64,000 bases of DNA from Escherichia phage PBM-1. Positions within the stretch are counted from its first letter, which is position 1; the number at the start of each line of letters is the position of its first letter. The stretch lies in the sequence record PV029540, one strand, 5' to 3'. Positions 4,744 through 48,800 of the stretch are shown piece after piece. A program made the position numbers and the translations under genes. The notes beneath the pieces are model-generated. The model was not told the origin of the DNA. It worked only from the letters and a program-made list of their open reading frames with translations, and did no database searches.

Positions 4744-5046
4744 TTATTTACCTTTAATTACTTTAGCTGCTTCGATAGCCGCTTGCTGAAGGTCATCCAT
4801 AGACATACCGAATTTAGAAGCAAAGTTATCAATTTTCTTTTCGACAGCATTCAAAGGCTTGGCCTGTTTACCTTCATTAGCGCCAGGAAGAGCGAGAATA
4901 CGCTCTTTGTCAATATAAAGGCTTACAAGTTTCTTACGGTCTTTATCGGACAAATCGTGAAATGAATGGGCCTTTTTATTTATAGCGGCTTCTAATTTAC
5001 CTGCACTCACTCGCGCTTCAGTAATAAATTCTTGATATGTTTTCAT
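4744..5046 (-). CDS. ipII: internal protein II-like (capsid-targeted internal protein)
   Basis: 100 aa; N-terminal MKTYQEFITEA capsid-targeting sequence; position between denV and e. Confidence 0.7.
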   Translation of the reverse strand: MKTYQEFITEARVSAGKLEAAINKKAHSFHDLSDKDRKKLVSLYIDKERILALPGANEGKQAKPLNAVEKKIDNFASKFGMSMDDLQQAAIEAAKVIKGK

Positions 5047-5049
5047 ATG

Positions 5050-5100
5050 TTTCCTTTAAATATTTTAATTAGTAATTGTGAATATATTATCGCAGTTTTA
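5050..5100 (-). promoter_or_regulatory. sigma70-type early promoter-like element upstream of ipII
   Basis: Minus strand GTTTAT-N18-TAATAT; ~40-nt repeat shared with 4690-4740. Confidence 0.4.
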
Positions 5101-5117
5101 GGAGAAAATAAACAACT

Positions 5118-5648
<531 letters not shown>

Positions 5649-8579: not shown

Positions 8580-9110
8580 TTATATCATGCTATTTAAGAG
8601 GTGTAAACTATTTTTAATTTTACAAATTCGTTCAGCTTCTTCAACAGCGGCGGCGATAATGCTTTTAGCTATAGGAGTACTAATACTAGTAGCTTTTACA
8701 CTTAACACGATTTCTTTATCTTTACCAGGCCAACCCCACGTTTTTTCACCGTGAGTGCCTTTAATTACAGCAGACACCTCAAGTGAGCATCCATTATCAC
8801 ATGTTTTTACATTAACAACCCAAGGGTCACTTTTCTCAACCGGTTTATCAATCGGTTTATCCCAGTAAATATTAAGAATACGTGGGACATCAAATTTAGC
8901 AGGGCAAATCTTAACCGTAAGACCTTCGCTTTCTAGCCAATTAATAAGAGGGCGTTCATACATGCGGCGATGTGGGCTTCGGACTCGACAAGCCTTGTGC
9001 CCATTGCTTGCGGCTTCACTAAGCTGTTCTAATACCTGCTTTTGCATTATTGATAAGATACCATCAAAAGATTTTTCGGAAGTTTCATTCAGTTCTGTAT
9101 AAAGAGACAT
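8580..9110 (-). CDS. hypothetical protein (176 aa)
   Basis: ORF in early chain. Confidence 0.55.
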   Translation of the reverse strand: MSLYTELNETSEKSFDGILSIMQKQVLEQLSEAASNGHKACRVRSPHRRMYERPLINWLESEGLTVKICPAKFDVPRILNIYWDKPIDKPVEKSDPWVVNVKTCDNGCSLEVSAVIKGTHGEKTWGWPGKDKEIVLSVKATSISTPIAKSIIAAAVEEAERICKIKNSLHLLNSMI

Positions 9111-9530: not shown

Positions 9531-9658
9531 CTAGGGCAGGGATGGGCAATTAAAGGATAGGATAATATATTATAAAGGGTATAAACTAAATGATGCCTAG
9601 AGAGGTCCAGAAAGGCCTAGATACCAAAAAGCCCTATCATTTAGATAGGGATTTAAAA

Positions 9659-10222
9659 TTATTTACCTAGTTTAGTTATTATAGCTTCTGCAGCAGCTTT
9701 TAGCTTAGATGCAGTGTTAATACGATTTTTAATTTCAGTATACGCATCGCCAAGAACATCAAGGCTATCAGAATAAACACTTACACTATTGCGTTCGCTA
9801 TTTGAAATAGAACCTTTAGTTTTACGATCAAAATCGGTGTACACGTCTTGAAGATCGCGGGCTGCCTTCTTTGCATCATCCAATGCATCAAGAGCTTTAT
9901 TCAAAGCATTAACGTATTTTTTAGTGTCGAACATATTCTTAGAAATTTTAACAGGTGCACGTTCAGGAGTAGCTAATACAGATTTAGGAACCTGAGCGCC
10001 AGATGCCAATTTCTTAGAAATTTTGAAAAATGCTTTATTGAATTTATTTTCTTGACTCATTGTAAAAGAACTATTATCGATGTTGTACATTTCAATAGCT
10101 TTAGCTTTCCACTTAAGAAAATCGCCGCGGTCTTTTGGGTCCAAGTGGAAGAATACTTTAGTAAGATCTGCTTCAGATGGTAATTTTGCTGCTTCGGTTA
10201 AAAATTCTGCATAGGTTTTCAT
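9659..10222 (-). CDS. internal-protein-like capsid-targeted protein (187 aa)
   Basis: N-terminal MKTYAEFLTEA matches the T4 capsid-targeting consensus; hairpin terminator downstream. Confidence 0.65.
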   Translation of the reverse strand: MKTYAEFLTEAAKLPSEADLTKVFFHLDPKDRGDFLKWKAKAIEMYNIDNSSFTMSQENKFNKAFFKISKKLASGAQVPKSVLATPERAPVKISKNMFDTKKYVNALNKALDALDDAKKAARDLQDVYTDFDRKTKGSISNSERNSVSVYSDSLDVLGDAYTEIKNRINTASKLKAAAEAIITKLGK

Positions 10223-10312
10223 TTAAAATCCTTGAAATAATCTATCGGTTGGTTATTAATTATTTATTACTTTGTTATTATCCGTAACAGCGTTATCCGA
10301 GTGATTCAAACT

Positions 10313-10340
10313 AAAAAGCCCCAACCTTTCGGCTGGGGCT
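10313..10340 (-). terminator. rho-independent terminator
   Basis: Minus strand AGCCCCAGCC-GAAAGG-TTGGGGCT hairpin followed by TTTTT. Confidence 0.6.
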
Positions 10341-10347
10341 AAGAATG

Positions 10348-10821
10348 TTATTTGATTTGTTTAGCAGACCAAATGCGGTCTTTAATAATTTTTTGGATGT
10401 CTTCAACATACTCAAGAGAGTGAACATGTGGGTTATCTTTGAAACTATAAGCACGGGCTAACTTTTGGCCTTCGGTTTTGATTACTAAAAGCTCTTTAAG
10501 GATAGCTTCATATTTAGCGATAATTCCTTTAACGATATTTTTTTCTTGTGCAGCTTTAGGATCTGCTTTAGGAGCAGGTTTACCCGAAGCCTTTGCAAAA
10601 GCAGCGCCAGTAGCAACTAAACTTTTCCAGGCCATACTAACTGCATTTCCCGTAAATCCTTCTGCTTTCATGTCGCGAGCAAACTGGAATCGTGATTCGT
10701 CAGAAGCATCTTTATAGGAATATTTACCCGCTGCAATGGCTGCTTTTGCGACAGCTTGAATTTCGGTGCTAGATGCTTCATTTAACACCGCTTCATTTAA
10801 AAATTGAGCATATGATTTCAT
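10348..10821 (-). CDS. internal-protein-like capsid-targeted protein (157 aa)
   Basis: N-terminal MKSYAQFLNEA capsid-targeting-like sequence; late-promoter TATAAATA upstream on minus strand; hairpin terminator downstream. Confidence 0.65.
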   Translation of the reverse strand: MKSYAQFLNEAVLNEASSTEIQAVAKAAIAAGKYSYKDASDESRFQFARDMKAEGFTGNAVSMAWKSLVATGAAFAKASGKPAPKADPKAAQEKNIVKGIIAKYEAILKELLVIKTEGQKLARAYSFKDNPHVHSLEYVEDIQKIIKDRIWSAKQIK

Positions 10822-10859: not shown

Positions 10860-10872
10860 TGTATTTATACTA

Positions 10873-10900
10873 AAAAGCCCCAACCTTTCGGTCGGGGCTA
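10873..10900 (-). terminator. rho-independent terminator after the tRNA/stable-RNA transcript
   Basis: Minus strand GC hairpin (GCCCCGACC..GGTTGGGGC) followed by TTTTT. Confidence 0.6.
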
Positions 10901-11210: not shown

Positions 11211-11561
11211 TTAATATTCTTTTAAAGCATCAATCTGTTCACGGCGTTTACGCCATAAATCAATTACTTCATACGCAGATTCAGCATTTCGAATTGGACG
11301 GCATTTATATAAAGACTTGTGATTTTGATATTGCGTAGATAATGGAATTTTATCTAAAAGGTCTTTACGTTCAAAGTATTCGTAACCATCTAAGCCAAAT
11401 GAACGATTTTTGAGAAATTGCCAATGACCATATTCGTTTTCGACATAAACATAATCCGCGTGTTGATAAAGCAAATTAATTACACGTTCAGAAATAATAG
11501 TGTCATTGTGATTAAAATAAAATGTTAAATCATGAACTACTAAATAAACATTACCTTTCAT
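11211..11561 (-). CDS. hypothetical protein (116 aa)
   Basis: ORF just downstream of tRNA cluster in transcription direction. Confidence 0.45.
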   Translation of the reverse strand: MKGNVYLVVHDLTFYFNHNDTIISERVINLLYQHADYVYVENEYGHWQFLKNRSFGLDGYEYFERKDLLDKIPLSTQYQNHKSLYKCRPIRNAESAYEVIDLWRKRREQIDALKEY

Positions 11562-11577
11562 ATTTTCCTCACTTAAT

Positions 11578-11653
11578 TGGTCGAGGCAGTAGGGATCGAA
11601 CCTACGACCTAGGACTTAGAAGGTCCTTGCTCTTCCTTCTGAGCTATGCCCCG
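11578..11653 (-). tRNA. tRNA-Arg (anticodon TCT)
   Basis: Manual cloverleaf: acceptor CGGGGCA/TGCCTCG, anticodon stem AGGAC/GTCCT, loop CTTCTAA, T-loop TTCGATC, encoded CCA. Confidence 0.75.
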
Positions 11654-11657
11654 TAAT

Positions 11658-11733
11658 TGGGGTGACCGATGGGAGTCGAACCCATGACTACGAGAATCAC
11701 AATCTCGAGTTCTACCAACTGAACTACGGCCAC
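11658..11733 (-). tRNA. tRNA-His (anticodon GTG)
   Basis: Manual cloverleaf: anticodon stem CGAGA/TCTCG, loop TTGTGAT, T-arm ATGGG-TTCGACT-CCCAT, encoded CCA. Confidence 0.7.
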
Positions 11734-11846
11734 ATTAATACCTACTCCAACAATCAAGATGTCTTCACACGAAATTAAGAGAAGAGTGATCAGTTCAACC
11801 CTATAATCGCGTCAAGTAGATATTAATGTGACAGTTGTCACAAATT

Positions 11847-11922
11847 TGGCGGACGTGATAGGATTCGAACCTATAACCAATCGCTTAACAGGCGATCGCT
11901 CTGCCATTGAGCTACACATCCA
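11847..11922 (-). tRNA. tRNA-Asn (anticodon GTT)
   Basis: Manual cloverleaf: anticodon stem ATCGC/GCGAT, loop CTGTTAA, T-arm ATAGG-TTCGAAT-CCTAT, encoded CCA. Confidence 0.7.
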
Positions 11923-11926
11923 AATT

Positions 11927-12012
11927 GGTGGGGAGTGATGGAGTCGAACCACCCGAGTCGCAATGACAATGGATTTACAGTCCACACCGCTACCTCTACG
12001 GGATAACTCCCC
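11927..12012 (-). tRNA. tRNA-Tyr (anticodon GTA), long variable arm
   Basis: Manual cloverleaf: acceptor GGGGAGT/ACTCCCC, anticodon loop CTGTAAA, ~86 nt. Confidence 0.7.
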
Positions 12013-12018
12013 TTAATT

Positions 12019-12093
12019 TGGTGGCCCTGGGTGGAATTGAACCACCATCTGGCGATTATGAGTCGCTTGCTTGAACCTTCCAGCTACAGGGCC
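12019..12093 (-). tRNA. tRNA-Met or Ile2 (anticodon CAT)
   Basis: Manual cloverleaf: acceptor GGCCCTG/CAGGGCC, anticodon loop CTCATAA; not initiator-like. Confidence 0.65.
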
Positions 12094-12094
12094 T

Positions 12095-12170
12095 TGGTGC
12101 TGATTGACGGAATCGAACCGCCGACCTTCTCATTACAAGTGAGTTGCTCTACCTACTGAGCTAAATCAGC
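12095..12170 (-). tRNA. tRNA-Thr (anticodon TGT)
   Basis: Manual cloverleaf: acceptor GCTGATT/AATCAGC, anticodon loop CTTGTAA. Confidence 0.7.
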
Positions 12171-12175
12171 AAAAC

Positions 12176-12265
12176 TGGCGGAGGCGATAGGATTTGAACC
12201 TATGAGTCGCCGGAGCGACTGCCGGTTTTCAAGACCGGTGCATTAAACCACTCTGCCACGCCTCC
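12176..12265 (-). tRNA. tRNA-Ser (anticodon TGA), long variable arm
   Basis: Manual cloverleaf: anticodon stem CCGGT/ACCGG, loop CTTGAAA, ~90 nt. Confidence 0.7.
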
Positions 12266-12271
12266 AAATAT

Positions 12272-12880
12272 TTATATATTGTTAATTTGATTTAGAATTC
12301 TTTTTGCTTGAGTATGACTTACGCCAATATGCTTAGCATATTTAGATAATTCGCCTCGTTTAGAAAAATCATATAATTTAGAAATTTCTATTCTTCTTTT
12401 TCTTTCATCCGCAGAAACTTTTGCTTCGTTTGCTTTTGCTATTTTACGTTTAGCTTCTTGAGAATGAGTTTTACCAGCAAAGCCATTCTTCATTAATCCA
12501 TTTGAAGACCATCCTTTTAATTTTCCGTTAGAATGTGCCTTTTTAACACCCAATGAAATTAATTCACGTTGCTGATCTGTCATAGGATAATTATTTATAT
12601 GATCCCATCCACCTTCACCACCAAGTTTTAAATTATACACATCTGATCTATTTAAAAACTCTTCTGTGACAATATTTTTCTCGGCTTCAAGCATAGATTC
12701 TTTATCATCAAAATACTCTAATATTTCTTTAGAAAAATTTTCTATACCATACTTATCTTGGGCTCTTTTTAATAATTTACCGGAACCCATATATCCATCA
12801 TCTAAATTTTCGGTAGAATGCACACCAATATAAATTTTATTATTAATTTTATTTGTTATTTTATAAAGATAAAAATGCAT
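12272..12880 (-). CDS. GIY-YIG homing endonuclease (SegB-like)
   Basis: ORF 12272-12922; GIY-YIG motif YLYKITNKINNKIYIGVHS near N-terminus if started at Met15; embedded in tRNA cluster as segB is in T4. Confidence 0.75.
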   Translation of the reverse strand: MHFYLYKITNKINNKIYIGVHSTENLDDGYMGSGKLLKRAQDKYGIENFSKEILEYFDDKESMLEAEKNIVTEEFLNRSDVYNLKLGGEGGWDHINNYPMTDQQRELISLGVKKAHSNGKLKGWSSNGLMKNGFAGKTHSQEAKRKIAKANEAKVSADERKRRIEISKLYDFSKRGELSKYAKHIGVSHTQAKRILNQINNI

Positions 12881-12926
12881 ATCAGTCCCTAATAAAGAAC
12901 TGAGCGTCTCACGACGAGTCATAAAT

Positions 12927-12981
<55 letters not shown>

Positions 12982-12995
12982 GCCATTATACGATA

Positions 12996-13082
12996 TCCGC
13001 AAATTTGGTGCGAGAAGTGGGACTCGAACCCACAAGGAAATCATTCCGCAGCATTTTAAGTGCTGTGCCTTTACCAATTTGA
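12996..13082 (-). tRNA. tRNA-Leu (anticodon TAA), long variable arm
   Basis: Manual cloverleaf: acceptor GCGAGAA/TTCTCGC, anticodon stem CAGCA/TGCTG, loop CTTAAAA, T-arm GTGGG-TTCGAGT-CCCAC; lies under the spurious plus ORF 12926-13225. Confidence 0.7.
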
Positions 13083-13098
13083 CCATTCTCGCGCTATA

Positions 13099-13707
13099 TT
13101 ATTTATTACGTGAAAAAGATTGTTCTATCAGCTCTGGACACTTTCGTTCTATCCATTTTCTAGCTTTTTGTGGGCTTATACCTATTATTTTAGCAGCTTT
13201 ACTAACCCATCCAAATTTAGAATAATCAATTTTAACTAATTCTTCGTAAATTTCATCAGTTAAAATGTTTTCATTAATATTTACCAGTAAATGATATAAT
13301 TTATTATCATTAGCAATTTTAATGAATCTTTTATAGTTTCCGCCTTTACTTAAACCTAATGAAGTAATTGCAGATGATATAGTAGCCGAATTTAATAATG
13401 CGTTTAAAATTTCTTCATCACTAACATTATAACGCTTTTTATTATTTTTAATATTTTTACCAGCAAAAGTATCAGTTTGCGAATGGCAATTTGGACATAA
13501 TAATCTTAAATTTGATTTAAGATGATTTTTATTATTTCCGTCAATATGGTCTAATTGCAGAACAATATGTTTATTTTGCCATTTTGAAATTTTACAAATT
13601 GCGCACTCATATGGAAAAATATTTTCTTTTATTATTTTATCTTTCAGCTTTCCTGTACTAAAATTTGGATGTTTTCCTTCAAAAATTTCAGCTAATTTAG
13701 TATCCAT
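13099..13707 (-). CDS. HNH homing endonuclease
   Basis: ORF 13099-13731 (first codon TTG); HNH/zinc-finger signature CAICK...LQLDHIDGNNKNH...CPNCH. Confidence 0.7.
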   Translation of the reverse strand: MDTKLAEIFEGKHPNFSTGKLKDKIIKENIFPYECAICKISKWQNKHIVLQLDHIDGNNKNHLKSNLRLLCPNCHSQTDTFAGKNIKNNKKRYNVSDEEILNALLNSATISSAITSLGLSKGGNYKRFIKIANDNKLYHLLVNINENILTDEIYEELVKIDYSKFGWVSKAAKIIGISPQKARKWIERKCPELIEQSFSRNK

Positions 13708-13817
13708 AATATGATTCCCAATTATTAACAAAGGCTCTTAAGCAAGAACCCTTGATGATAGAGGGTATTAATCAGTACGGTATGAGTTAATAATAACAAA
13801 TAATTCTTAAAGCATAT

Positions 13818-14710: not shown

Positions 14711-14770
14711 CTCAGTAGTTGATAGGGTAATAGTATCACTACCCCATCTAAAAGTAAACTTATTTTTTAC
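14711..14770 (-). promoter_or_regulatory. T4-type early promoter
   Basis: Minus strand GTTTAC-N18-TACTAT upstream of small membrane ORF. Confidence 0.5.
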
Positions 14771-14993
14771 GAAAAATTGATTTATTTTCTGCTGCCCATT
14801 TTTCAATAACTACAGCAGGACCAGTAACAACAATTTTATCACCGTAATCTTCTGCGGCGAGTTGACCGAAATTATCTAATGCATCACGAAGAACTCCATG
14901 AGGCATTTCACCCATTTTATCTTTCTTGCCGGTGTAAATAAACTCAACTTTTACATCAGAAGATTCAGCGATAAACTCTTTGAAAGTTTTCAT
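14760..14993 (-). CDS. internal-protein-like capsid-targeted protein (~77 aa)
   Basis: N-terminal MKTFKEFIAES capsid-targeting-like sequence from Met5; conserved early promoter upstream. Confidence 0.6.
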   Translation of the reverse strand: MKTFKEFIAESSDVKVEFIYTGKKDKMGEMPHGVLRDALDNFGQLAAEDYGDKIVVTGPAVVIEKWAAENKSIFRKK

Positions 14994-15019: not shown

Positions 15020-15080
15020 TTGATAGGGTAATAGTATCACAACTAAAACCCTATGTAAACAACTTTGTGAAATTATTTTA
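15020..15080 (-). promoter_or_regulatory. T4-type early promoter
   Basis: Minus strand GTTTACA-N17-TACTAT upstream of IP-like gene; shares ~30 nt with 15350-15410. Confidence 0.5.
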
Positions 15081-15330
15081 AATCTTCTAATCGTTTCTTC
15101 ATCTTAGAACCATTTTTAGCAATTTCTCCTGCATCGGAGCATAACGCTAAAAGTGCTTTAACTTTAGTTTGGTCTCCTTTAAAAGATGAAGGATCGACTG
15201 CAGCAGCAAGTTCTTTAATACGAGAGAAAAGACGCTCAGCTTCAGCTAAAGCCATTCCAAGCTTTACTTCCATACCGTGGGAAGATTCAGTGATAGTAGT
15301 TTTTGCAGCAAACTCTTTGAAAGTTTTCAT
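15073..15330 (-). CDS. internal-protein-like capsid-targeted protein (85 aa)
   Basis: N-terminal MKTFKEFAAKT capsid-targeting-like sequence; conserved early promoter upstream, near-duplicate of the one at 15020-15080. Confidence 0.6.
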   Translation of the reverse strand: MKTFKEFAAKTTITESSHGMEVKLGMALAEAERLFSRIKELAAAVDPSSFKGDQTKVKALLALCSDAGEIAKNGSKMKKRLEDLK

Positions 15331-41375: not shown

Positions 41376-41383
41376 TTGATTAT

Positions 41384-41397
41384 GGGGCTTCGGCCCC
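41384..41397 (+). other. GC hairpin with UUCG tetraloop after gene 18
   Basis: GGGGC-TTCG-GCCCC directly after the gene 18 stop, covering the first codons of the HNH ORF. Confidence 0.6.
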
Positions 41398-41414
41398 TAT
41401 TCTCGAGGAAACAA

Positions 41415-42032
41415 GTGATTATTTCTAAGTTTGTTAAAGTGAAAATTGTACCATCAAATTTTAAACATTATCAATCAAAGGGTTATAAATTAACACCTCT
41501 TGGAGCGGTTAAACACGGATTTAGGTATTATGAAATTGATGTTAAAGTTGAAGACATTAAAGGTAATACCGCGTATGTAAAATGCCGTTGCGATAAATGT
41601 GGAATTGAATATAACCAACGCATTGGAAGAAACACTGATATTTGTCGTGATTGCCGTCATAAAGATAAAATGCGCAATAATTCATATGGTTCCGCGAATA
41701 AAGGAAAAACAGTAGAATGTATGCATGGCGTAAATCATCCAAGATGGAACCCAAATAAATCTGAAATGCGTGAATATATTTCATTGGTATATAAAGAAAC
41801 TCGTAAGCATAAGAAAATTTGGTCAAAATGGCCAAATGCTGATAAAATAGGAGTGTGCGGTACAAAAGGTGCTTACCAACTTGATCATAAGGTATCTATC
41901 AAATACGGTTTTGATAATTTAATTCCTGCTGAAATAATTGGCGGTATTAATAATTTAGAAATAATCACTTGGGAATCTAACCGAGAAAAATCAAAAAGAA
42001 ATAGTGTAGATCTTTGGGATTTACTAGAATGA
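41415..42032 (+). CDS. HNH homing endonuclease inserted between genes 18 and 19
   Basis: ORF 41376-42032 (first codon TTG, inside a GC hairpin); GTG at 41415 has GAGGA SD; CxxC...CxxC zinc-finger-like motifs and HNH-like YQLDHKVSIKYGFDN...N. Confidence 0.7.
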   Translation: MIISKFVKVKIVPSNFKHYQSKGYKLTPLGAVKHGFRYYEIDVKVEDIKGNTAYVKCRCDKCGIEYNQRIGRNTDICRDCRHKDKMRNNSYGSANKGKTVECMHGVNHPRWNPNKSEMREYISLVYKETRKHKKIWSKWPNADKIGVCGTKGAYQLDHKVSIKYGFDNLIPAEIIGGINNLEIITWESNREKSKRNSVDLWDLLE

Positions 42033-44288: not shown

Positions 44289-44289
<1 letters not shown>

Positions 44290-44546
44290 TGGAAGGTTTA
44301 ATTGAAGCTATTAAATCAAACGACCTCGTAGCCGCTCGTAAATTCTTTGCTGAAGCCATGGCTGCAAGAACGATTGATTTAATTAAAGAAGAAAAAATCG
44401 CTATCGCTCGTAATTTCTTAATCGAAGGTGAAGAACCTGATGATGAGGATGACGAAGACGAGGATGATGACGAAGATAGCGATGATAAAGACGACAAAAA
44501 AGACAAAGACTCTGACGAAGATGACGAAGACGAGGATGATGAATAA
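44289..44546 (+). CDS. 67: gp67 prohead core protein
   Basis: 85 aa; highly acidic D/E-rich C-terminal half; position. Confidence 0.8.
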
Positions 44547-44971
44547 TGCTTCTGATCCCTGAAACTCATGAATTAGTTCTCGAGAATGTCGAAGCACTTA
44601 TTCCTGAAGCACAGGGTCGCTTTGACGAATTGTCTTCTGCTTTAAATAAAGACGATATAAATACAATTGTCGAGAATATGCTTGATGATGAAACTGATTT
44701 AGCGATTGCATTAGCTTCTATTAATGAAGATATGCCGCTAAATGAATTCATCGTTAAACATGTTTCTGCTCGTGGTGAAATTACACGTACTAAAGACCGC
44801 AAGACGCGTGAACGTAATGCATTTCAAACCACCGGGCTGTCTAAAGCAAAACGTAGACAAATTGCTCGCAAAGCTACCAAAACGAAGATTGCCAACCCAG
44901 CAGGTCAATCTCGTGCTCAGCGTAAGCGTAAAAAAGCTCTTAAACGCCGTAAAGCATTAGGATTAAGCTAA
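44546..44971 (+). CDS. 68: gp68 prohead core protein
   Basis: 141 aa; position. Confidence 0.8.
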
Positions 44972-45603
44972 TGAATGAACCCCAATTACTAATTGAAACT
45001 TGGGGTCAACCTGGCGAAATTATTGATGGTGTGCCAATGCTTGAATCTCATGATGGAAAAGACCTCGGTTTAAAACCTGGTTTATACATCGAAGGAATAT
45101 TCATGCAAGCGGAAGTCGTCAATAGAAATAAACGTCTTTATCCAAAACGCATATTAGAAAAAGCGGTAAAAGACTATATCAATGAGCAAGTTTTAACAAA
45201 ACAAGCTCTCGGAGAATTAAATCATCCTCCACGCGCTAAAGTTGACCCGATGCAAGCCGCTATCATTATAGAAGATATGTGGTGGAAAGGAAATGACGTA
45301 TACGGACGAGCTCGTGTTATTGAAGGTGACCATGGTCCTGGAGATAAATTAGCAGCTAATATTCGTGCCGGATGGATTCCAGGAGTTTCTTCTCGTGGAT
45401 TAGGTTCATTGACTGACACAAATAAAGGTTATCGTATCGTAAACGAAGGATTCAAATTAACTGTAGGTGTTGATGCAGTATGGGGTCCAAGTGCTCCAGA
45501 TGCATGGGTAACCGTGCTTTTCCGCGGTTTTTCTTATAATAATAAGCGAAATCACGACGCCAGTATCCAGATTTCGCGTTATCAATACACAATACAATTT
45601 TAG
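44971..45603 (+). CDS. 21: gp21 prohead core protease, C-terminus replaced by read-through into antisense rnh
   Basis: Position and size fit T4 gp21 through about aa 181 (~45513); the remaining 29 aa are the reverse-complement reading of rnh codons. Confidence 0.7.
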   Translation: MNEPQLLIETWGQPGEIIDGVPMLESHDGKDLGLKPGLYIEGIFMQAEVVNRNKRLYPKRILEKAVKDYINEQVLTKQALGELNHPPRAKVDPMQAAIIIEDMWWKGNDVYGRARVIEGDHGPGDKLAANIRAGWIPGVSSRGLGSLTDTNKGYRIVNEGFKLTVGVDAVWGPSAPDAWVTVLFRGFSYNNKRNHDASIQISRYQYTIQF

Positions 45604-45808
45604 TGTATCCAAGAGTTTTTGCTTTTTTAACATTGAACTTAATTGAGTTCAATATCAAATGACGAACCATTGATAAATTAATTTTTTCTTTATCTGGGAA
45701 GTTTACCAGAGCAGTTGAAAGCGCAATCTGACTAAAGTCAATTAAGCAAATTCCTTCTTTGTAATCTTCATCCAGCATCATTTCTAAATCCATATGAACC
45801 TCGTTCAA
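45452..45808 (-). pseudogene. rnh: RNase H (rnh) 5' fragment: first ~94 codons only
   Basis: From Met6 (45793) matches T4 RNase H MDLEMMLDEDYKEGICLIDFSQ...KKNRGKAR, then diverges at ~45512 into antisense of gene 21; full rnh is 305 aa. Confidence 0.85.
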
Positions 45809-45819
45809 TTAGTGAGATT

Positions 45820-45865
45820 TCTATTATATACTATCTAAATCTTAAAGTAAACAAGTATAAATACT
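45820..45865 (-). promoter_or_regulatory. early promoter for rnh
   Basis: Minus strand GTTTAC-N16/17-TATATAAT upstream of the rnh start. Confidence 0.5.
45856..45863 (+). promoter_or_regulatory. late promoter (TATAAATA) for gene 34
   Basis: Exact TATAAATA ~35 nt upstream of the gene 34 ATG. Confidence 0.6.
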
Positions 45866-45897
45866 TATTATTGAAAACACAATAGGAGCCCGGGAGA

Positions 45898-48800
45898 ATG
45901 GCCGAGATTAAAAGAAAGTTCAGAGCAGAAGATGGTCTGGACGCAGGTGGCGATAAAATAATCAACGTAGCTTTAGCTGATCGTACCGTAGGAACTGACG
46001 GTGTTAACGTTGATTACTTAATTCAAGAAAACACAGTTCAACAATATGATCCAACTCGTGGATATTTAAAAGATTTTGTAATCATTTATAATAATCGTTT
46101 TTGGGCAGCAACGGATAATATTCCAAAACCTGCTGGAAGTTTTAATAGAATTCGTTGGAAAGCATTACGTACTGATGCTGTATATACAACCGTATCATCT
46201 GGACCGTATCAATTAAAATCCGGAGAAGCAATTTCAGTAGATACATCAGTTGGTAATGACATTGAGTTTACTTTACCACCTTCTCCGCTCGATGGAGAAA
46301 CAGTAATAATTCAAGATATCGGTGGAAAACCTGGTATAAATCAGGTTAAAATAAGTTCTTCAAATCAGAGCATTGTTAATTTTAGAGGTGAACAAGTACG
46401 TTCAGTTTTAATGACTCATCCAAAGTCACAGATGATATTCATTTTTAATAATCGTTTGTGGCAAATGTATGTTGCTGATTATAGCAGAGAAGCTGCAATT
46501 GTTACTCCATCGACTGCATATCAAGCACAATCTAATGATTTTATTGTGCGTAGATTTACTTCCGCAGCGCCGATTAATATTAAACTTCCGAGATTTGCTA
46601 ATCATGGCGATATTATTAATTTCGTTGATTTAGATAAATTAAATCCACTTTATCATACAATTGTCACGACATATGATGAAACAACTTCAGTACAAGAAGT
46701 TGGAACTCATTCCATTGAAGGCCGTACATCTATTGATGGTTTCTTGATGTATGATGATAATGAGAAATTATGGAGATTATTTGACGGGGATAGTAAAGCA
46801 CGTTTACGTGTTATAACAACTAATTCTAATATTCGTCCAAACGAAGAAGTTATGGTATTTAGTGCGAATAATGGAACAACTCAAACAATTGAACTTCAGC
46901 TTCCGACCGATATTTCCATTGGCGATACTGTTAAAATTTCCATGAATTACATGAGAAAAGGCCAAACAGTTAAAATCAAAGCTGCCGGTGAAGATAAAAT
47001 TGCTTCTTCAGTTCAATTGCTGCAATTCCCAAAACGTTCAGAATATCCACCTGAAGCTGAATGGGTGACTGTTCAAGAATTAGTTTTTAACGGTGAAACT
47101 AATTATGTTCCAGTTTTACAACTTGCTTATATCGAAGATTCTGACGGAAAATACTGGGTTGTACAGCAAAACGTTCCAACAGTTGAAAGAGTCGATTCTT
47201 TAAATAATTCTACTAGAGCAAGATTAGGCGTAATTGCTTTAGCTACACAAGCTCAAGCTAATGCTGATTTAGAAAATTCTCCACAAAAAGAATTGGCAAT
47301 TACTCCAGAAACGTTAGCTAATCGTACTGCTACAGAAACTCGCAGAGGTATCGCAAGAATAGCAACTACTGCTCAAGTTAACCAGGATACTACATTCTCT
47401 TTTGCTGATGATATTATCATCACTCCTAAAAAGCTGAATGAAAGAACTGCTACAGAAACTCGCAGAGGTGTTGCTGAAATTGCTACGCAACAAGAAACTA
47501 ATGCAGGAACCGATGATACTACAATCATCACTCCTAAAAAGCTTCAAGCTCGTCAAGGTTCTGAATCATTATCTGGTATTGTAACCTTTGTATCTACTGC
47601 AGGTGCTACTCCAGCTTCTAGCCGTGAATTAAATGGTACGAATGTTTATAATAAAAACACTAATAATTTAGTTGTTTCACCTAAAGCTTTAGATCAGTAT
47701 AAAGCTACTCCAACACAACAAGGTGCAGTAATTTTAGCAGTTGAAAGTGAAGTAATTGCTGGACAGAGTCAAGAAGGATGGGCAAATGCGGTTGTAACGC
47801 CAGAAACGTTACATAAAAAGACATCAACTGATGCAAGAATTGGTTTAATTGAAATTGCTACGCAAAGTGAAGTTAATACAGGAACTGATTATACTCGCGC
47901 AGTCACTCCTAAAACTTTAAATGACCGTAAAGCAACTGAAAGTTTAAGTGGTATAGCTGAAATTGCTACGCAAGTTGAATTCGACGCAGGCGTCGACGAT
48001 ACTCGTATCTCTACACCATTAAAAATTAAAACCAGATTTAATAGTACTGATCGTACTTCTGTTGTTGCTCTATCTGGATTAGTTGAATCAGGAACTCTCT
48101 GGGACCATTATACCCTTAATATTCTTGAAGCAAATGAGACACAGCGTGGTACACTTCGTGTGGCTACACAAGTTGAATCTGCTGCAGGAATATTAGATAA
48201 TGTTCTAATAACTCCTAAAAAGCTTTTAGGTACTAAATCTACTGAAGCGCAAGAAGGCGTTATTAAAGTTGCAACTCAATCTGAAACTGTAGCTGGAACG
48301 TCAGCAAATACTGCTGTATCTCCAAAAAATTTAAAATGGATTGTGCAGAGCGAACCTACTTGGGCAGCAACTACTTTGGTAAGAGGTTTTGTTAAAACTT
48401 CATCTGGTTCAATTACATTCGTTGGTAATGATACAGTTGGTTCAACGCAGCCATTAGACTTGTACGAGAAAAATAGCTATGCAGTATCACCATATGAATT
48501 AAACCGTGTATTAGCAAATTATTTGCCGTTAAAAGCAAAAGCTGCTGACGCAAATTTATTAGATGGTCTAGATTCATCTCAGTTCATTCGTAGGGATATT
48601 GCCCAGACAGTTAATGGTTCACTAACCTTAACCAAACAAACGAACCTGAGTGCCCCTCTTGTATCATCTAGTACTGCTACGTTTGGTGGATCAGTTTCAG
48701 CAAATAGTACACTAACTATTTCTAATACTGGAACGGCAACTCAATTAATTTTTGAGAAAGGACCTCAAACTGGAACAAACCCGACTCAAACAATGACTGT

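Follow-up and report, generated by a model that had tools for sequence, protein, structure and literature searches.

The window analysed here is a stretch of 64,000 nucleotides (nt) of Escherichia phage PBM-1 (sequence record PV029540), which is that of a T4-like Tequatrovirus. Two genes on its minus strand, here called A and B, are flanked by e.8 on one side and by the small RNAs and tRNA cluster (11578-13092 for the tRNAs) on the other. Both products start with the leader that targets T4 internal proteins (IPs) to the capsid, and the best explanation of the locus is that A and B are previously unlabelled T4-type internal proteins carried by two independent terminator-bounded cassettes. An earlier note, made from the sequence alone, had described two proteins with such leaders and a terminator for each gene; the leaders and terminators were confirmed, and both genes are complete open reading frames (ORFs). 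The features of the locus are the following, where a slash marks a predicted cleavage site or a junction:

9632..9650, minus strand: A's terminator, with GGGCTTTTT/GGTATCTA at its end; here the two-cassette insert has its downstream junction in comparison with T4
9659..10222, minus strand: gene A, complete ORF of 187 amino acids (aa), start MKTYAEFLTEA
10193..10222, minus strand: leader of A, codons 1-10, MKTYAEFLTE/A, predicted gp21 site L-T-E/A
10261..10268 (read 10268 to 10261), minus strand: late-promoter variant of A, AATAAATA, in which A replaces T at -13; 39 nt before the ATG
10317..10340, minus strand: terminator of B, repeat family D1, 90% identical to the rnaC terminator
10348..10821, minus strand: gene B, complete ORF of 157 aa, start MKSYAQFLNEA
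10792..10821, minus strand: leader of B, codons 1-10, MKSYAQFLNE/A, predicted gp21 site L-N-E/A
10862..10869 (read 10869 to 10862), minus strand: late promoter of B, exact TATAAATA, 41 nt before the ATG
10876..10899, minus strand: intrinsic terminator on the rnaC side, ending the tRNA/rnaD/rnaC unit and forming the upstream edge of cassette B

The leaders are of the MKT[YF]xEF type found in T4 IPI-III. T4 IPII and IPIII start with MKTYQEFIAE/A and T4 IPI with MKTFKEF...ITE/A (read from the translations), and the start of A is identical to that of IPII and IPIII at 7 of 11 residues, counted by eye. Each leader ends in the (L/I)-x-E/A motif of the prohead protease; a comparison with the gp21 consensus, which the earlier note had proposed as a check, gives a match to L-x-E/A in both. 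Protein A carries no [LI]-x-E site besides that at leader residue 10, and B has a second L-N-E/A five residues further on, after residue 15. A six-frame search of the 64 kb with the pattern M-x-x-[YF]-x-[EQ]-F returned 6 matches where 1.1 were expected from shuffled sequence. Five of them open IP-like ORFs, namely ipII, A, B and a pair at the ipI locus, and the sixth is a 7-codon chance occurrence within gene e. The resemblance to the T4 leader is therefore not a matter of chance. In nine related loci, the same pattern marks IP genes and homologues of A and B, and it recurs at that chance site within gene e.

The leader outlasts the body that follows it. B-family proteins of four genera begin MKSYAQFLNE, MKSYAEFLTE, MLEYSEFLKE and MKFKEFLAE, with bodies that have diverged or been exchanged. 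Neighbouring proteins moreover share a dialect: a single metagenomic contig encodes an A-like protein with MITFNEFLNES and an ART-PolyVal/DUF3990 protein with MITFKQFLNES, and Yersinia phage fHe-Yen9-01 carries both MLQYNEFLKES and MLEYSEFLKEL. This persistence, and the occurrence of phage-specific dialects on unrelated neighbours, constitute evidence, at the level of sequence comparison, of a working targeting signal. As a separate observation, the ART-PolyVal/DUF3990 gene of that contig (L009, 2092-2526), which is ADP-ribosyltransferase-like, directly follows the A-like gene, and its product may be an enzyme packaged in the manner of T4 Alt.

Could the leaders instead be relics of recombination, placed on ordinary cytoplasmic late proteins that stay outside the heads? 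The DNA coding for the leader forms a short repeat present in both genes (D2, 76% identity over 42 nt), which recombination could have spread. In addition, no annotator has applied an IP label. The ~70 rows or regions inspected, out of 164 records matching A and 511 matching B, all read 'hypothetical', in agreement with the earlier description of the proteins as uncharacterised; this includes phage RB33, where Ip4, Ip5, Ip7 and Ip9 are labelled and the B orthologue RB33_134 is not. The retention of both leader and L-x-E site in four genera, despite diverged or swapped bodies, and the dialects shared with unrelated neighbours speak against such relics, which we regard as very improbable.

The expression signals point in the same direction. 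The earlier note had proposed dual early and late signals, with an exact late promoter for the upstream gene. The late part holds: B is preceded by the exact TATAAATA, as had been claimed, and A by the variant AATAAATA, which is kept in Mosigvirus PhAPEC2. In T4-like phages, position -13 of late promoters is reported as either A or T (PMC1524935). The early part is unsupported, since upstream of A or B no sigma-70-type promoter scored better than 8/12 and no MotA box was found. The nearest early promoter, at 9501-9473, lies downstream of A and belongs to e.8. Late promoters with no early ones are a further argument against the leaders being mere relics. The late promoter of B sits directly behind the terminator T-run (TTTTTAGTATAAATA). 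In Klebsiella phage KP1, the B-like gene is preceded by the same TTTTTAGTATAAATA behind a terminator whose stem differs, and in fHe-Yen9-01 a terminator and an exact TATAAATA precede the A-like gene at the place occupied by AATAAATA in PBM-1. A late promoter right behind a terminator is thus conserved in Tequatrovirus, Jiaodavirus and Tegunavirus.

Comparison of related phages delimits the two cassettes. The 1.7 kb around A and B share 99.4% identity with Shigella phage vB_SsoM_113 and 98% or more with many phages of E. coli, Shigella and Yersinia. At this locus T4 has neither gene: its rnaC terminator GGGGCTTTTT is joined directly to GGTATCTAAG before e.8, so that the junction reads GGGGCTTTTT/GGTATCTA. 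Yersinia phage fD1 carries B without A, with the terminator of B joined directly to GGTATCTA (GGTATCTAGG). RB69 carries A without B, and both genes are present in PBM-1, Bas37, JB75 and PhAPEC2. Junctions always fall at a terminator T-run, with the exact boundary GGGGCTTTTT/GGTATCTA in the comparison of T4, fD1 and PBM-1, suggesting that A and B are two independent terminator-bounded modules inserted in one hotspot. Recent functional work on T-even internal proteins names two IP loci (PMC12373910). No description of the e.8-rnaC interval as a third was found in the literature covered, the older primary literature being outside its scope. Our analysis points to this interval as a third IP hotspot, with two further leader-bearing proteins.

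The mature parts of A and B are basic and predicted to be helical. The composition of A and B resembles that of IPII and IPIII (isoelectric point, pI, 9.4-9.5; Lys 13-14%; Ala 12-18%). The predicted mature form of A is 19.7 kDa and that of B 16.0 or 15.5 kDa, each with a pI of 9.5. AlphaFold models share one layout, in which the leader is disordered and a small helical domain comes next, joined through a flexible linker to a long alpha-hairpin; the predicted parts are the following:

A: leader 1-10; helical N-domain ~17-73; disordered linker 74-99; long alpha-hairpin 100-186
B: leader 1-10; small helical N-domain ~16-75; Pro/Lys/Ala linker; C-terminal alpha-hairpin 88-154

The confidence of the models (predicted local distance difference test, pLDDT) is 73 for B and 57 for A, and the model of A is too poor for a fold search. 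The earlier note had suggested searching for folds that mimic other molecules; fold and family searches gave no functional lead for either protein.

It had also stated that the bodies of the two proteins do not resemble each other. This is correct as far as direct comparison goes: BLASTP aligns the leader alone, hhalign gives no significant match, and neither of them could show direct homology between A and B. Nevertheless both belong to the same PHROGs v4 family, phrog_2280, which has neither name nor function and which they match over nearly their full length (A: residues 1-181, E 1e-54 to 9.7e-54; B: residues 1-157, E 2e-61 to 1.7e-60). This family evidently includes relatives of 177-189 aa from Klebsiella and Yersinia phages. 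Since the comparison of A and B profiles is not significant, membership of one family reflects remote or mosaic similarity. The common PHROG, the common architecture and intermediate sequences that weakly bridge A and B indicate that they are probably distant mosaic paralogues, to which BLASTP and hhalign offer no direct link.

The two genes differ in distribution and in mode of evolution. B matches 511 phage records, mainly Tequatrovirus, with homologues of ~73% identity in Mosigvirus and partial ones in Klebsiella and Yersinia phages. Its family retains the N-domain (~16-75) and the Pro/Lys/Ala linker while the C-terminal part differs by genus, the C-domain being swapped in the Klebsiella and Yersinia phages. 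Between B of PBM-1 and that of Mosigvirus PhAPEC2, synonymous divergence (dS) is saturated and nonsynonymous divergence (dN) is 0.29 in the N-domain vs 0.05 in the C-domain, a rate about six times faster. A matches 164 records, 163 of them at 95% identity or more, and is intact at that identity in 161 of the 164. Its cassette has 97% DNA identity with that of PhAPEC2, a dS of 0.16 and a dN/dS of 0.07, suggesting a recent exchange between genera and strong purifying selection. A has only two distant relatives, a metagenomic protein of 204 aa (31% identity, E 5e-6) and fHe-Yen9-01 gp154 (24%, full length); a phmmer search against 1.84 billion representatives returned a single distant relative (P0027) and no T4 protein. 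Both relatives carry a '...TPDLY...'-type C-terminal segment also found in the B-like proteins of Klebsiella and Yersinia phages.

The form of A varies in some records. The gene is split in RB69 (L011, 9429-9991) into ORF149c and ORF148c and in vB_EcoM_G29 (L013, 401-963) by a frameshift, the halves being 97% identical to A in each case. These frameshifts may be sequencing errors. In vB_Eco_F26 (L012), A is intact, and part of its 3' end is repeated behind it.

Data on presence in virions come from fD1. Its B orthologue g140, ~97% identical to B by reading of the translation, was detected in purified virions by liquid chromatography coupled to tandem mass spectrometry (PMC8309999, Table S3), and the product of the adjoining e.8 was not among the proteins listed there. 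This detection is another point against a cytoplasmic B bearing a relic leader. Its specificity is weak, as 113-137 of the 277 fD1 gene products (41-49%) were listed as particle-associated (PMC8309999). Among other phages with virion studies, Sfk20 was analysed by sodium dodecyl sulphate polyacrylamide gel electrophoresis only, and phiR1-RT lacks both the A and B genes.

Bas37 (KarlGJung, MZ501089), which has the same A/B locus as PBM-1, was included in the HIDEN-SEQ transposon screen (preprint 10.1101/2025.11.20.689424). In the B orthologue bas37_0244 (99% identical), 29 of 34 TA sites received insertions; the gene is non-essential and shows no significant change in the host comparison examined. 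The A orthologue bas37_0243 (99% identical) received insertions at 1 of 48 TA sites, is classed 'Essential' and has reads near zero in every comparison, its mutants being absent from the library, a result on which the authors do not comment. A polar effect is an unlikely cause of this call, because insertions are tolerated in B and in all downstream genes as far as e.

The absence of A from T4 and most relatives, and its frameshifts in RB69 and vB_EcoM_G29, suggest that the call may be context-dependent or an artefact. A would in the latter case be an ordinary dispensable internal protein, and the Bas37 result would stem from a phage stock that had lost the A cassette by recombination between flanking repeats, or from a locus-specific transposon effect. 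The terminators flanking the cassette both end in GGGCTTTTT, and the same screen scored hoc, inh, wac, uvsW, segC and segE as essential although T4 can dispense with them; this, like the silence of its authors on bas37_0243, fits the explanation by an artefact. Opposed to it are the insertions tolerated in B, 125 nt upstream, and in e.8, immediately downstream; the intact state and low dN/dS of A in nearly all its records; and the correct assignment of T4 ipI, ipII and ipIII as non-essential by the same method. An artefact is a real possibility, with chances somewhat short of even.

The window also carries genes at the two recognised IP loci:

4744..5046, minus strand: ipII orthologue, 100 aa, MKTYQEFITE/ARV, adjoining the lysozyme gene e
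14760-14993, minus strand: Ip6-like ORF of the ipI locus, 77 aa, MKTFKEFIAE/S, 94% identical to Bas37_0260
15073-15330, minus strand: Ip5-like ORF of the ipI locus, 85 aa, MKTFKEFAAK...ITE/S

The true start of the Ip6-like ORF is probably the leader Met at 14993 and not a four-codon METK extension. No ipIII lies between the ipII orthologue and gene e. At the counterpart of 4744-5612, phages JB75, RB33, teqdroes and fD1 have a 157-aa 'Ip4', and the IP complement differs among all phages examined.

These differences bear on the possibility that A and B are packaged accessories of the core or scaffold, purely structural or DNA-condensing, which substitute for IPII and IPIII and are not anti-defence effectors. 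PBM-1 is without ipIII and Bas37 without both ipII and ipIII; A matches IPIII in size and charge, is conserved, and scored essential in Bas37. The long alpha-helical hairpins predicted for A and B would resemble scaffold-like coiled coils, and the lysines of internal proteins touch DNA phosphates (PMC3012670). Against a structural substitute, A and B coexist with Ip4 in JB75, as does B in RB33, teqdroes and fD1, so that there is no clean complementarity with other IP genes; T4 needs neither gene; the N-domain of B diverges about six times as much as its C-domain, suggesting a changing partner; and every T4 internal protein of known function is a defence inhibitor. A specific version, in which A replaces IPIII and co-varies with the loss of ipII and ipIII, was set aside since no clean pattern emerged from a small sample (T4, RB33, teqdroes, fD1, JB75, Bas37 and PBM-1). 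A purely structural role for both proteins appears unlikely.

On balance we consider A and B likely to be true internal head proteins, which are produced late, enter the head by means of their leader, undergo trimming by gp21 and are delivered along with the DNA. By analogy with T4 IPI-III, transcription would occur late, for B from TATAAATA and for A from AATAAATA and/or by read-through. The 10-residue N-terminal capsid-targeting sequence (CTS) would carry the precursors into the prohead scaffolding core of gp22, gp67 and gp68, and gp21 would cleave after Glu10, with a possible second cut after Glu15 in B. The mature proteins (~19.7 and 16 kDa), basic and all-alpha, would remain with the DNA in the head and exit with it at infection. 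Genes for this machinery in the window are:

44289-44546, plus strand: gene 67, prohead scaffolding-core component (Pfam GP67, E 2e-41)
44546-44971, plus strand: gene 68, prohead core, assigned by position and size only, with no Pfam match
44971..45603, plus strand: gp21 prohead protease, the enzyme expected to remove the leaders (Peptidase_S77, E 3e-105), truncated at the 3' end by an assembly or deletion junction

Owing to a junction near 45.5 kb, described below, the window contains no gene 22.

Several points weigh against this reading. Packaging, cleavage and injection of A and B in PBM-1 itself are what we infer from the evidence above. For A, no virion proteomics of a phage bearing the gene was found in the literature, including under RB69ORF149c and Shfl2p135, and the many fD1 products recovered with particles temper the case for B. 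The late-promoter evidence is weaker for A, which has no exact TATAAATA. Sequence searches of Pfam, NCBIfam, PADLOC and PDB with A and B returned nothing above noise. The conservation of A and its apparent essentiality are unlike known internal proteins, and to these are added its absence from T4 and most of its relatives, the two frameshifted records, and the scoring by HIDEN-SEQ of T4 hoc, inh and wac as essential (10.1101/2025.11.20.689424).

The two proteins may not share one function. The earlier note had presented both as strong candidates for injected anti-defence effectors; for B this is plausible, for A doubtful. Each of the T4 proteins Ip1, Ip2 and Ip3 (IPI, IPII and IPIII) inhibits a distinct GmrSD type IV restriction enzyme (PMC12373910), and Bas37_0260, a leader-bearing Ip6-like protein of the ipI locus, inhibits McrBC (10.1101/2025.11.20.689424). 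B is not needed in E. coli K-12, and its N-domain evolves fast; most likely it resembles Ip1-3 and Ip6 in being injected to inhibit a host defence that is specific to certain strains, probably a modification-dependent nuclease, though we judge the chances of this to be only evenly balanced.

For A, strong conservation and the essential score in Bas37 make a general role more likely than an arms-race role against restriction. This could be either that of a bulk DNA-associated core protein of the size of IPIII or that of protection against an ordinary E. coli function. A bolder proposal, which we offer tentatively and consider doubtful, is that A is needed for growth on ordinary E. coli K-12, which would make it the first such case among the CTS-targeted internal proteins of T-even phages. 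It would then be either an indispensable component of the head or of DNA delivery in those lineages that have it, or an injected inhibitor of a chromosomal function other than McrA, McrBC and Mrr, having spread between Tequatrovirus and Mosigvirus as a near-invariant terminator-bounded cassette.

Comparison with known systems shows how far A and B conform to the T4 model. Beyond the leader, they share with T4 IPI-III the L/I-x-E/A protease site, a late promoter and a basic composition rich in Lys and Ala. In length (187 vs 193 aa) and pI, A comes near to IPIII, and like the T4 genes, A and B are single-gene cassettes in variable regions. However, they occupy the e.8-rnaC interval and not the ipI or ipII/ipIII loci, and their mature parts have no detectable similarity to T4 internal proteins. 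The structure of IPI* consists of two beta sheets flanked by helices (PMC3012670), whereas A and B are predicted to be all-alpha with two domains. A further differs from the dispensable T4 internal proteins in being conserved and possibly essential. Like Bas37_0260 and the Ip4-Ip10 series, A and B are leader-bearing accessory proteins found in the same genomes; that series, in contrast, lies in the two recognised IP loci, with lengths of 77-158 aa and unrelated bodies. The case of Bas37_0260 and Ip6 indicates that novel CTS proteins can inhibit type IV systems other than GmrSD.

Other comparisons concern mobility and delivery. PeSL elements are reportedly mobile cassettes bounded by promoters and stem-loops in the hyperplastic regions of T4-type phages (an account attributed to Arbiol et al. 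2010). Like them, A and B are single ORFs between repeated stem-loops, with variable presence and precise junctions. However, the repeat unit here is a terminator followed by a late promoter rather than an early promoter and a stem-loop. T4 Alt and the P1 Dar proteins are also made beforehand and delivered with the DNA, as proposed here for A and B; they differ in targeting signals and folds, and A and B have no enzymatic domain.

Additional features were observed near the locus. Downstream, an ORF of 176 aa at 8580-9110 (phrog_6869, function unassigned) occupies the position of T4 e.7. In Bas37, the e.5-like and e.6-like genes bas37_0239 and bas37_0240, just downstream of the A/B locus, are strongly depleted of insertions in one host comparison (log2 fold change -3.6 and -6.5). 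They appear to be conditionally required neighbours, and a bas37_0240 knockout construct is listed in the preprint (10.1101/2025.11.20.689424). Upstream, the tRNA region (11211-13731) is unlike that of T4. It includes tRNAs for His, Asn, Tyr and Met, and none was detected for Ile, Pro and Gln. An ORF of 116 aa (phrog_3355, corresponding to bas37_0245) lies between tRNA-Arg and the rnaD/rnaC region. The tRNA cluster is interrupted by two candidate homing endonucleases, one GIY-YIG and segB-like at 12272-12922 and one HNH-like at 13099-13731, with motifs recognised by eye.

Elsewhere in the window, a 159-aa Macro-domain protein at 237-716 (Pfam PF01661, E 1e-7) lies among genes of the vs region and may be relevant to defence or counter-defence based on ADP-ribosylation. 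A 218-aa ORF between genes 18 and 19 (41376-42032), with HNH-like Cys/His motifs seen by eye, is probably another homing endonuclease. At 44971-45900, the gene order 20, 67, 68, 21 is followed by a jump: the sequence lacks genes 22-33, the major capsid gene among them, and continues with a gp34-like ORF of 1289 aa, other tail-fibre genes, t, motA and gene 52. We take the gene 21 ORF to agree with T4 gp21 up to '...APDAWVT' and to diverge thereafter, and the minus strand at 45452-45808 presumably resembles the N-terminus of RNase H. As a phage without genes 22-33 could not be viable, the jump is most likely a contig join or a misassembly in the source record.

Internal proteins are the pre-loaded, first-line counter-defence of T-even phages, and work of 2025 showed that distinct type IV restriction enzymes are blocked by all three T4 members and by one Ip6-type protein. 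Sequenced therapeutic and model phages with these genes number in the hundreds, and A and B are candidates for screens of the kind applied to ip1-10. B behaves like an arms-race gene and A like a conserved, perhaps required, component. This contrast, if true, would widen the range of roles supposed for internal proteins.

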